Assembly: GCA_964016885.1 (NCBI GenBank)
Contig: OZ024742.1
Coordinates: 315,332,001 to 315,396,000 of the forward strand
DNA from: Eledone cirrhosa
Lineage: Eukaryota
Direction: 5' to 3'
DNA: 64,000 nucleotides
Shown here: piece after piece, positions 13,731 through 15,569 of the stretch
Position numbering within the stretch: the first letter of the stretch is position 1
Layout: the number at the start of each line of letters is the position of its first letter
Position numbers and translations under genes: made by a program
Notes under the pieces: generated by a model
The model's input: the letters and a program-made list of their open reading frames with translations, nothing else
Told to the model about the DNA's origin: nothing
Database searches by the model: none

Positions 13731-14188
13731 TAATATATATATATATAAGTTGCGTGGTGGGGGCGTGCGTGTGTGTGTGTGTGTGTGTGTGGCTCAGTAA
13801 TTGGTTTAACGGTAAATATGGATGATGTGAGAAGAATATGAGTGTTTTGGTTTGTTCTTGAGTAGTATAGAAAGTGCATGAGGTCGAGAGTATGGTTTAT
13901 ATCTGGCTTAGGTACGAGGTAGGCTTTAATTTTCTAAGTGGATTTAAATATGGGTTAGAACAATCAACAATGTAAGTCGCATATATATATATATATATAT
14001 ATATAGTTAGGGAAGCAGAAAATTGCTTATTGTGATGCAGTTCGTGGTTAAGAAAGCCAGTTTCATGGATGATTTCAACGTACGGTTAGGGGTAACTCCA
14101 CAAGTTTGTAAGAATTCCGTTCAATCTTGGAGTATAAAGTATAAAAGAGAAAACACACGTAAGCATTAAGAGAAGGATTTTATCCAGG

Positions 14189-14290
14189 TATTTATGACCG
14201 TTTTATTGGTAAGTGCAACCTTATATTGCTATACTGCAAATAGCAGCCACTCAATTATAATTGTTGTTCACAGTCCATATTTTCAAAATA
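14189..14290 (-). ncRNA. Hammerhead motif with UUGAAAA core, decayed copy (GAAA changed to AAAA)
   Basis: UAUU-UUGAAAA-long stem II-AAAA-CGGUCA-UA-AAUA. Confidence 0.55.
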
Positions 14291-14857
14291 GTGAGTAAGT
14301 TACTCTTGAAATAATTCTTAATATATAGAGAAAAACATTTATTTGGAATTGTATTTACTAGTATAGAGAGAGAGGAATCAGAAGGTGAGGGGACAAACGG
14401 AATAGTATAAAGAGAGAGGAAGGGGGAGAGTTAGAAAGTAGAGTGACAAACTGAGATGGAGGGAGGGGTAGAGGTGGAAGGATTCCTTGATCAGTTTTGA
14501 TAGCAGACTTCATGTCGTGGAATGTAGTGAGTTAAAGAGAATTAAATTGATCGTAGTGGGAGGGATGGATAGAGAGAGAGAGACAGGGGGAGATATTAAA
14601 GAGATAAATATATACATAAAAAATAAAGATAAAGATAAAAATGACAAAAATAAAAGCAAAGAAGGGGGGAGAGAAAGAAGAGAAGAAAAGATAGCCAAGA
14701 AGGGGAGGGAAGCAAGGAAGAAAACGAAGAAATAGAAGAGGAATGAGGGAGAAGAGGGGGATATAGGTATTGGTTTTGTGGGTAATTAAAAGGGTTTAGA
14801 TACAACAAGAGGGTATAAAGTCTAAGTATATGCAGTTTGTCAGTTGGTAGTAAGAGG

Positions 14858-15247
14858 TTAAGGGTTCGATTTGCACTTGTAGTGCAAAAACTTCTCTTTG
14901 AGTCTATGGTTACAATAAATTGATCTTTCGATTTTATTGTTGAGTAACTTATTCTTCGAACTCAAGATGTGGAACAGCTCAAGGTCGCATAATCGGCAGC
15001 TTCTCATACCACTCCGATATGGGGGCGCGTTTGATAATTTGTTCCACTTCAGGGTGTATTGATGGTTACTTTCCCTCAGTTGCCAGGTCTTGTTTGCAAG
15101 GGTAGTTACATAACGATGCTGGGAATGTTTCATTGCGTAACGGTGTGTATACCAACGGGCTTTAAATGTATTCCCAGTCGCTCCGATGTAATACCATTTC
15201 TGGTTGTCTGATTCCACTGTGCATTGGTAAACCAGGTTAGACTGCAT
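14858..15247 (-). CDS. PLE GIY-YIG endonuclease fragment
   Basis: LVYQC...YYIGATGNTFKARW..H...CRLCDLE...LLN. Confidence 0.9.
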   Translation of the reverse strand: MQSNLVYQCTVESDNQKWYYIGATGNTFKARWYTHRYAMKHSQHRYVTTLANKTWQLRESNHQYTLKWNKLSNAPPYRSGMRSCRLCDLELFHILSSKNKLLNNKIERSIYCNHRLKEKFLHYKCKSNP

Positions 15248-15317
15248 ACATTCATTATGTAATGGACAGGTTTCAGGTAGGTGGCAAATACAATTCCAAA
15301 TAAATGTTTTTCTCTAT

Positions 15318-15419
15318 AAATTTGAAAATTTGGACTGTGAACAACAATTATAATTGAGTGGCTGCTATTTGCAGTATAGCAATATAAGGTTGCACTTACC
15401 AATGAAACGGTCGTAAATA
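15318..15419 (+). ncRNA. Type I hammerhead with UUGAAAA core and long stem II; stem I 5' strand partly deleted
   Basis: UUGAAAA at 15322-28; UUGG...CCAA stem II; GAAA at 15404-07; ACGGUCGU stem III; GUA site at 15413-15. Confidence 0.6.
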
Positions 15420-15569
15420 CCTGGATAAAATCCTTCTCTTAATGCTTACCTGTGTTTTCTCTTTTATACTATATATATATATATATATATATATATATAT
15501 ATATATATATATATATATATATATATATATATATATATGTATATATATATATATATACATATATATATA

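Follow-up and report, generated by a model that had tools for sequence, protein, structure and literature searches.

A probable U3-A8 hammerhead with a 75-nt stem II in a Hydra-clade Penelope-like element

The window, that is, the whole stretch of 64,000 nt that was analysed, raises the question of whether the segment at 14005-15470 holds a hammerhead of unusual build within a coding Penelope-like element (PLE). The first-pass annotation had described this segment as a third U3-A8 hammerhead, with a stem II of about 75 nt, attached to a GIY-YIG ORF. It is indeed the third, the others lying at 15785-15814 (+) and at 49133-49216 (+), the latter with an inverted copy at 48309-48226 (-), and 14005-15470 is the only one of the three U3-A8 families that is joined to coding sequence. 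We consider that the locus is probably a truncated and partly inverted PLE of the Hydra clade, inserted in (TA)n and carrying a type I U3-A8 hammerhead with a 75-nt stem II, and that intact members of the family would likely cut weakly, as a dimer or aided by protein. We observed the anatomy of such an element, the motifs of the Hydra clade, an intact majority in the family, a place of the hammerhead motif before a tail hairpin and damage in both local copies.

By its sequence, 14005-15470 is a 5'-truncated PLE with a (TA)n run on each flank (13981..14005 on the left and 15470..15570 on the right). On the minus strand it contains a C-terminal endonuclease domain of GIY-YIG type (14858..15296), with no RT left, followed by a 3' UTR whose sense strand is pyrimidine-rich (14291..14857; 572 nt from the stop codon to U3). 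Hammerhead copy A (14189..14290) lies on the same strand as the ORF and is damaged at 14204, 14195 and 14278. A tail hairpin of the Hydra-clade type (14095..14133, -) begins 59 nt past the predicted cut site, within a tail of about 130 nt beyond the main terminus (14005..14137, -) that is present in copy A and missing from copy B. Upstream of the ORF, pseudo-LTR copy B is inverted and 5'-truncated (15286..15470, +), and its hammerhead, copy B (15318..15419, +), has its core at 15322-15328, stem II at 15329-15403 and an intact G12 at 15404. The two copies are inverted relative to each other, an orientation not mentioned in the first-pass annotation: 14133-14287 and 15321-15475 match over 155 nt at 97%, and another 33 nt match between 14324-14356 and 15286-15318. 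The stop-to-stop ORF on the minus strand (14858-15313) has 151 aa; its coding homology stops near 15296, and the bases above that point belong to the inverted copy B. The 11 nt at 15286-15296 fit both the ORF and the pseudo-LTR and are a microhomology at the inversion joint. Because the ORF continued upstream of 15296 in five family contigs, the window copy is truncated at 15296.

The Hydra clade is defined by CxCX5C, CxxC, CxH, RWK-like and DKT motifs and by a (TA)n target (Craig et al. 2021, PMC8557442). The window protein has the CxCX5C linker, has CxxC and CxH around a conserved E and N, and has no CCHH; the element lies in (TA)n with inverted pseudo-LTRs, as is characteristic of this clade. 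A HMMER search gave 3,354 related proteins at E up to 0.001, with a best identity of 44%, and word-indexed protein searches returned no relatives of the window protein. Viral and prokaryote contigs contained no close relative by protein or DNA pattern. Pfam gave no GIY-YIG match for the window protein and weak ones (E 0.02-0.05) for 2 of 12 homologs. In an alignment of 26 sequences, Y23, Y36, G38, R47, H51, E106 and N119 were invariant. The domain forms the ORF's C-terminus and is followed by the stop codon and the 3' UTR; in two homologs of 690 and 696 aa (P0082 and P0106; 35-38% identity), it occupies residues about 555-686, C-terminal to the RT, with RLRW, DKT and YxDD upstream. Going by these motifs, the element is a member of the Hydra clade. 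Membership in Naiad or Chlamys was rejected; the endonuclease would then be N-terminal to the RT, and here and in the homologs it is C-terminal. At the level of sequence, these data support the reading of the motif as the hammerhead of a coding Penelope-like lineage.

Hammerhead positions are numbered here by the standard scheme. The presence of UUGAAAA in both pseudo-LTR copies, as the first-pass annotation had it, was confirmed: both copies parse into stem I, UUGAAAA, 75 nt, (G/A)AAA, CGGUC(G/A), UA and AAUA. In copy A, on the minus strand, stem I is formed by 14290-14287 and 14192-14189, the core from U3 to A9 by 14286-14280 and stem II by 14279-14205; the G12 position is 14204, stem III is 14201-14194 and residue 17 is at 14193. 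The Watson-Crick pair 3-8 is U3-A8 in both copies. The core is complete in copy B and the majority of the family (U4, G5, A6, A9, G12, A13, A14, A15.1-U16.1 and H17), and copy A is without G12 and G16.2. The annotated lesion of copy A, GAAA to AAAA at 14204, is present but not alone: A replaces G12 at 14204 and G16.2 at 14195, and a third change lies in stem II (14278). These are also three of the four places at which the two copies differ over 14138-14287. Copy B is without 35 nt before the core relative to copy A, so that the 5' strand of its stem I is broken, with 1 bp kept. Both window copies are predicted to be inactive.

To see the family beyond the window, we used contigs of four public sequencing runs aligned on 14010-15310; run X1, from organism A, gave 2,218 contigs, and the contigs of runs X6 and X9 lay outside the hammerhead region. 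Run depth is a sum over contigs and not a copy number. In run X1, the G12 letter at 14204 had a depth of 92,257 of 92,267, the G16.2 letter at 14195 one of 105,852 of 105,923, and at 14278 the letter of copy B one of 45,338 of 45,418. In all, contigs of two runs showed the family intact at G12 and G16.2. Since the contigs keep G12 and G16.2, the intact form is the family majority and the lesions of copy A are private, and the intact consensus that had been proposed from the two damaged copies is thereby recovered. Positions 3 (14286) and 8 (14281) had no variant among 40 of the 65 variant rows. In the same 40 of 65 rows, none of 18 polymorphic sites fell within the 102-nt motif (p 0.23) and none within 14138-14360 (p 0.03), which we did not count as evidence. 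One contig of organism B covers 14012-14377 with 9 differences and no gap, and it ends in (TA)n at 14012 as the window does. The window copy is about 1.3% from the family majority among the rows listed. In the ORF, 9 of the 11 variant rows listed were synonymous and the other two were private to the window copy; because of this excess, the data fit a coding lineage under selection.

Six contigs with a loose end at 14271 represent a subfamily that has a shorter upstream flank and a different internal loop. This subfamily still has the stem I strand (UAUU), the core and, of the outer helices, the 5' strands; its stem II would fold at -22.7 kcal/mol, assuming an unchanged 3' strand. These contigs bear on the damage to copy B. 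The annotation was right that the 5' strand of stem I is missing; a deletion is not the only explanation, for a short upstream variant with UAUU exists, and the lesion may instead be a small insertion in such a variant.

We next consider how far the motif departs from the hammerheads of its clade. By our own count, C3-G8 is present in all 26 published Hydra rows (File S2, PMC8557442; 25 families), none of which has more than about 26 nt between A9 and G12; U stands at each side of stem II in 14 of the 26. As a further baseline, we took metagenome loci that encode Hydra-type domains, using the 80 best of 251 and, as seeds, mainstream Hydra proteins (12 of 150 listed); the domains of these loci are 26-40% identical to the window domain, and they serve as a baseline and not for covariation. 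A sense-strand hammerhead was found in 41 of the 80 loci and no match in the other 39. All 41 hammerheads have C3-G8, with a stem II of 10-27 nt, and 26 of them have the U-U closure. U3-A8 was thus found in 0 of 26 published Hydra rows and in 0 of 41 metagenome hammerheads. Because all 41 relatives have C3-G8, we interpret U3-A8 as a two-sided change that keeps the pair. In every distant full-length relative the core is the canonical C3-G8 and stem II is short, and for this reason we take the U3-A8 variant to be lineage-specific rather than false. A covariance model built from 35 canonical Hydra hammerheads matched neither copy at E up to 10, and 144 Rfam matches at E up to 5 included no hammerhead family. 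Accordingly, the window motif is not a canonical Hydra hammerhead with C3-G8 and a short stem II, though it stands at the homologous place near the 3' end. It has in common with Hydra hammerheads the U10.1-U11.1 closure and a palindromic stem III. Natural U3-A8 ribozymes that are active in vitro have been described, and U10.1-U11.1 is the best-tolerated mismatch (Perreault 2011).

Stem II of copy A (14205..14279, -) is a hairpin without branches in which six short helices follow one another, U10.1-U11.1 and then 4 bp forming its closure. In the form of copy B it folds at -20.0 kcal/mol (z = -2.51; 3 of 200 shuffles were equally good), and the opposite strand folds at -14.7 (z -1.65). Of the nested helices drawn in the first-pass annotation, the outer two hold, with pairing probabilities of 0.72-1.0 in the isolated stem II, but the innermost, UGCUA/UAGCA, does not: the ensemble favours GCUGC/GCAGU (p about 1), and forcing the annotated helix costs 7.5 kcal/mol. 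Among the proteins, contigs and metagenome loci searched, we found no relatives of intermediate distance for a comparison of stem II. Folds of the whole motif were no better than shuffles (z -0.78 and -1.38).

Stem I of copy A could form four A-U pairs, with pairing probabilities of at most 0.13 in the ensemble fold (3-8 bp, median 5, in relatives). Stem III was not formed in the monomer (p 0.01), and it is self-complementary and could form a duplex of 8 bp at -5.8 kcal/mol. Adopting the hammerhead fold would cost 5.5 kcal/mol relative to the free fold, and in a competing helix the start of stem II pairs with stem III; these points, like the weak stem I, were counted against the hammerhead reading. 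The tertiary contact between loops I and II is usually missing from metazoan PLE hammerheads, and we identified none for the 14189..14290 motif. Considering that stem I consists of four A-U pairs, that the active fold lies that far up and that the competing helix hides stem III, the model predicts low activity for the hammerhead of the intact family. Other Penelope hammerheads that were measured had low, dimer-dependent or protein-assisted activity (PMC4209133, PMC11167929).

Behind the hammerhead, the tail contains a structure that recurs in the clade. Of 36 distinct Hydra hammerheads, 22 show a hairpin of the pattern RCUC...YYGAGC that begins +32 to +56 past the cut site, against a background of 19 of 1276 tiles. 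The tail hairpin of copy A is at +59, and the search pattern had been widened after copy A was known. The hairpin is built of an RCUC/GAGY outer stem, a 2-nt 3' bulge and a covarying inner stem, followed by ACU; a second copy often stands about 60-80 nt farther on. Examples in relative loci are those of L002 (1765-1789), L004, L008, L014, L016 and others, and several of the 14 hairpin-less Hydra hammerheads end in TA before the place of the hairpin. In 21 aligned hairpins, 91.7% of cells pair and 30 cells changed on both sides, which 0 of 500 shuffles reached, with slid controls at 22-55%; the outer four pairs are fixed by the selection pattern, and 29 of the 30 double changes are in the inner four, which are not. 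The 14095..14133 hairpin folds weakly alone (z -0.53). Within the window, the hairpin model gave six more matches at E up to 0.02: 49233-49276, 49444-49487, 60747-60790 and 57612-57651 on the plus strand, and 24595-24638 and 33486-33529 on the minus strand. Those at 49233 and 60747 come directly after the 49133 family's stem III and stem I, and those at 24595-24638 and 33486-33529 are behind fold-back copies of the same family.

The hairpin coincides with the places where copies end. Copy B, like the loose ends of the family, breaks off at 14138-14133, immediately 5' of the hairpin, with loose ends in TA at 14133 among the family contigs, and in run X1 the summed contig depth is 17,000-30,000 over the 14005..14137 tail versus 120,000-132,000 at 14142-14229. 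By eye, the related locus pairs L069/L002, L059/L072 and L013/L014 also diverge at the place of the hairpin. In an Anolis element, an internal RT start and protein-assisted cleavage have been shown (PMC11167929). Termini in this place fit internal initiation next to a stem-loop of that kind, and we infer that the tail hairpin is likely the signal beside which reverse transcription starts. In the literature and supplements searched, we did not find the bulged hairpin behind Hydra hammerheads. Because of the U-U closure, the palindromic stem III and the tail hairpin 59 nt on, the 14189..14290 motif is by its position the hammerhead of the Hydra clade.

Based on these features, a mechanism can be proposed. 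The GIY-YIG domain would nick (TA)n, and the protein would bind the tail hairpin, so that cDNA would start just 5' of it, giving the main terminus at 14138-14133, and less often at 14005. The inverted copy B would result from a template switch over the 11-nt microhomology. In tandem transcripts, two stems III could pair as the 8-bp duplex, and cutting would follow residue 17 (14193/14192). Stem II would have grown by insertion into loop II, an insertion that may have been tolerated because it folds back on itself. The U3-A8 pair could have arisen by drift, C to U and G to A being presumably the commonest changes in an AT-rich genome, a point that we counted against our explanation. A more far-reaching version of it, in which an active U3-A8 group has a long stem II (75 and 54 nt) selected as a platform for protein binding or switching, together with a clade-wide RT-start signal in the form of the bulged hairpin, is tentative and in our view rather unlikely.

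The main rival to this explanation is that the motif derives from a Hydra hammerhead and that cleavage was lost family-wide, the pseudo-LTR being kept for its promoter and for RT binding, with the core as a passenger in a young family. The weak stem I and the unfavourable fold would suit such a history. For the Anolis element (PMC11167929), hammerhead mutants left insertion in vitro unaffected and no reads ended at the cut site, and Naiads thrive without canonical hammerheads (PMC8557442). The family is also young, which makes its intact core weak evidence of selection. However, the other core positions were all kept while C3-G8 became another pair, and U3-A8 is common to three non-alignable families in one window. 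Moreover, with another flank and internal loop, the 14271 subfamily has lost neither stem I nor the core nor the outer-helix 5' strands. We regard a family-wide loss of cleavage as unlikely.

The two further alternatives concern the 5' half and the long arm. UUGAAAA is common in AT-rich DNA, and the copy 75 nt upstream might be a chance match, with the 3' half of an old hammerhead alone surviving; that the folds of the whole motif do not exceed shuffles and that the canonical model misses the motif would agree with this. Against it, given the 3' half, the joint chance of finding stem I, core and stem II closure within 150 nt is 1.8e-5, and that of core and closure without stem I is 8.7e-4; none of 300 composition-matched random sequences of 600 nt gave a full descriptor match. 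The closure is the clade-typical U-U on both sides, and there is no other core between UUGAAAA and the 3' half. A chance match is very unlikely. Inspection by eye also turned up a possible core within stem II with A6 deleted, which was rejected, as it would leave 11 unpaired bases ahead of G12. Alternatively, the extra length of stem II may have been kept as a DNA or splicing signal, a piece of an intron or promoter, with an incidental fold. Penelope pseudo-LTRs can contain a promoter and an intron (PMC8557442, PMC4209133), CTYAC/GTRAG motifs are clustered in the pseudo-LTR, and a 65-nt GT...AG stretch of the plus strand (14209-14273) falls wholly within stem II. This stretch is, however, antisense to the ORF, no joint that skips 14209-14273 is listed in the family contigs, and the sense strand folds better than the antisense strand; after the Hydra hammerheads, CTTAC occurs in 1 of 36 and CTCAC in 2 of 36. 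Such a signal as the reason for the length is very unlikely.

We thus return to the reading of the motif as a weakly cutting, long-armed Hydra-clade hammerhead, which can be compared with known systems. The Hydra-clade hammerheads (PMC8557442) are likewise of type I and in sense orientation, placed downstream of the ORF at 50-100 nt from the element end, with a frequent U-U closure, a short palindromic stem III, a (TA)n target and the endonuclease motifs, but they combine C3-G8 with a spacing of no more than about 26 nt, whereas here we have U3-A8 and 75 nt. The Cercyon element of Schistosoma mansoni (PMC4209133) has the same core covariation in the pseudo-LTRs of a coding PLE, a short stem I and a predicted dimer dependence; it differs in belonging to another PLE lineage and in its helix II of 7-8 bp and minimal helix III, in contrast to the 75-nt stem II of six helices found here. 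U3-A8 hammerheads were found by homology to the Cercyon Penelope element, with about 1,300 matches (Cervera and de la Pena 2014, PMC4209133). Because of this report of 2014, the tie of the U3-A8 core to a coding PLE is not new: the annotation was correct in drawing it, as the Hydra motifs and the 9 of 11 synonymous ORF rows indicate, but it had been drawn before. PLE-X1 hammerheads of spike moss (PMC8557442, File S2) are also of Penelope type, and two elements have a stem II enlarged to about 50 nt by our count; those are endonuclease-less plant elements in 28S rDNA, with C3-G8 and a stem II below 75 nt. In Poseidon PAc of Anolis (Frangieh et al. 2024, PMC11167929), two termini bracket a 'tail', RT starts at an internal stem-loop and the hammerhead is protein-assisted, as proposed here; PAc belongs to another clade, its tail is 30-40 nt as opposed to about 130 nt, and the part of that report examined makes no mention of a bulged RCUC/GAGY hairpin. 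The discontinuous hammerhead of mammalian Clec2 (reviewed in PMC6155905) is another natural case in which a long insertion in one arm is tolerated, though it is of type III, with 150-1500 nt inserted in helix I, and lies in the 3' UTR of a host gene with no retroelement.

In the literature searched, neither U3-A8 in Hydra elements nor a 75-nt Penelope stem II was reported; forms with U3-A8 or a long stem II may already appear in the study of Lunse et al., and long stems II in the figures or supplementary files that accompany the 2011 and 2014 papers. Within that scope, a long-armed U3-A8 hammerhead in the Hydra clade is unreported, the arm being about three times the length of those of its relatives. 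For the role that hammerheads play in Penelope-like elements, a lineage in which both partners of the 3-8 pair changed and stem II tripled, with the rest of the core kept, is a natural test of selection for cleavage. There is also a blind spot in detection, in that a model from the clade's own hammerheads misses this motif; Naiad cores split at 35-50 nt are likewise beyond the fit of descriptors (Craig et al., PMC8557442). If the long-armed reading is true, standard descriptors miss such motifs, and some 'ribozyme-less' Penelope elements may hold them. The tail hairpin by the main terminus is, for the Hydra clade, a concrete candidate for the RT-start signal, which Frangieh et al. located in another clade.

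The other two U3-A8 families of the window have no adjoining endonuclease homology, and the three families are non-alignable at the DNA level. At 15785-15814 (+) there is a short U3-A8 hammerhead with a 13-nt stem II, within a fold-back pseudo-LTR stub (15570-15897) that ends in TTTATACT and (TA)n like the 14005-15470 element. The family at 48207-49320 comprises the hammerhead at 49133-49216 (+) and the inverted copy at 48309-48226 (-), with a stem II of 54 nt and no ORF between the inverted arms. It has a stem I of 5 bp and a long stem III with a GC-rich interior of 5 bp, and its hammerhead would possibly be able to act as a monomer. Judged by these stems, the 49133 family is a better first candidate for cleavage than the 14005-15470 motif. 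The folds of the 15785 and 49133 families are not significant alone (z -0.39 to -1.58). Palindromic stubs of the 49133 family at 24595-24760 and 33486-33640 have their inversion point inside stem II, and fold-backs of this kind could be a route of stem II growth.

Hammerheads and remnants of the C3-G8 type are also present in the window. A second Hydra-clade element at 56121-57455 has an endonuclease domain (56592-57206, +) that is 30% identical to the 14858..15296 domain, inverted arms of 524 nt and a canonical C3-G8 core at 56188-56159 (-). The canonical covariance model matched in the window at 57791-57860 (E 0.0008) and 56153-56194 (E 0.009). Other hammerheads or remnants of this type lie at 57797-57854 (-), 60556-60605 (-), 60885-60946 (+) and 34552-34600 (+), with stems II of 38, 31, about 31 and 18 nt, respectively; longer stems II seem to be common in this genome.

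A splice-like cluster lies at 14133-14300, where the plus strand has several GTRAG sites and the 65-nt GT...AG at 14209-14273. The minus strand has CTTAC, a pyrimidine tract and AG near 14129; as in Penelope, these might mark the 3' end of an intron located in the 5' UTR. A minus-strand stop-to-stop frame of 186 aa at 12782-13342, with a weak zf-RVT match (E 0.045), is probably the end of a LINE, unrelated to 14005-15470. From 61818 onward on the plus strand, a frame of 292 aa matches the endonuclease profile weakly (E 2.7e-5) and possibly belongs to another Penelope-like clade.
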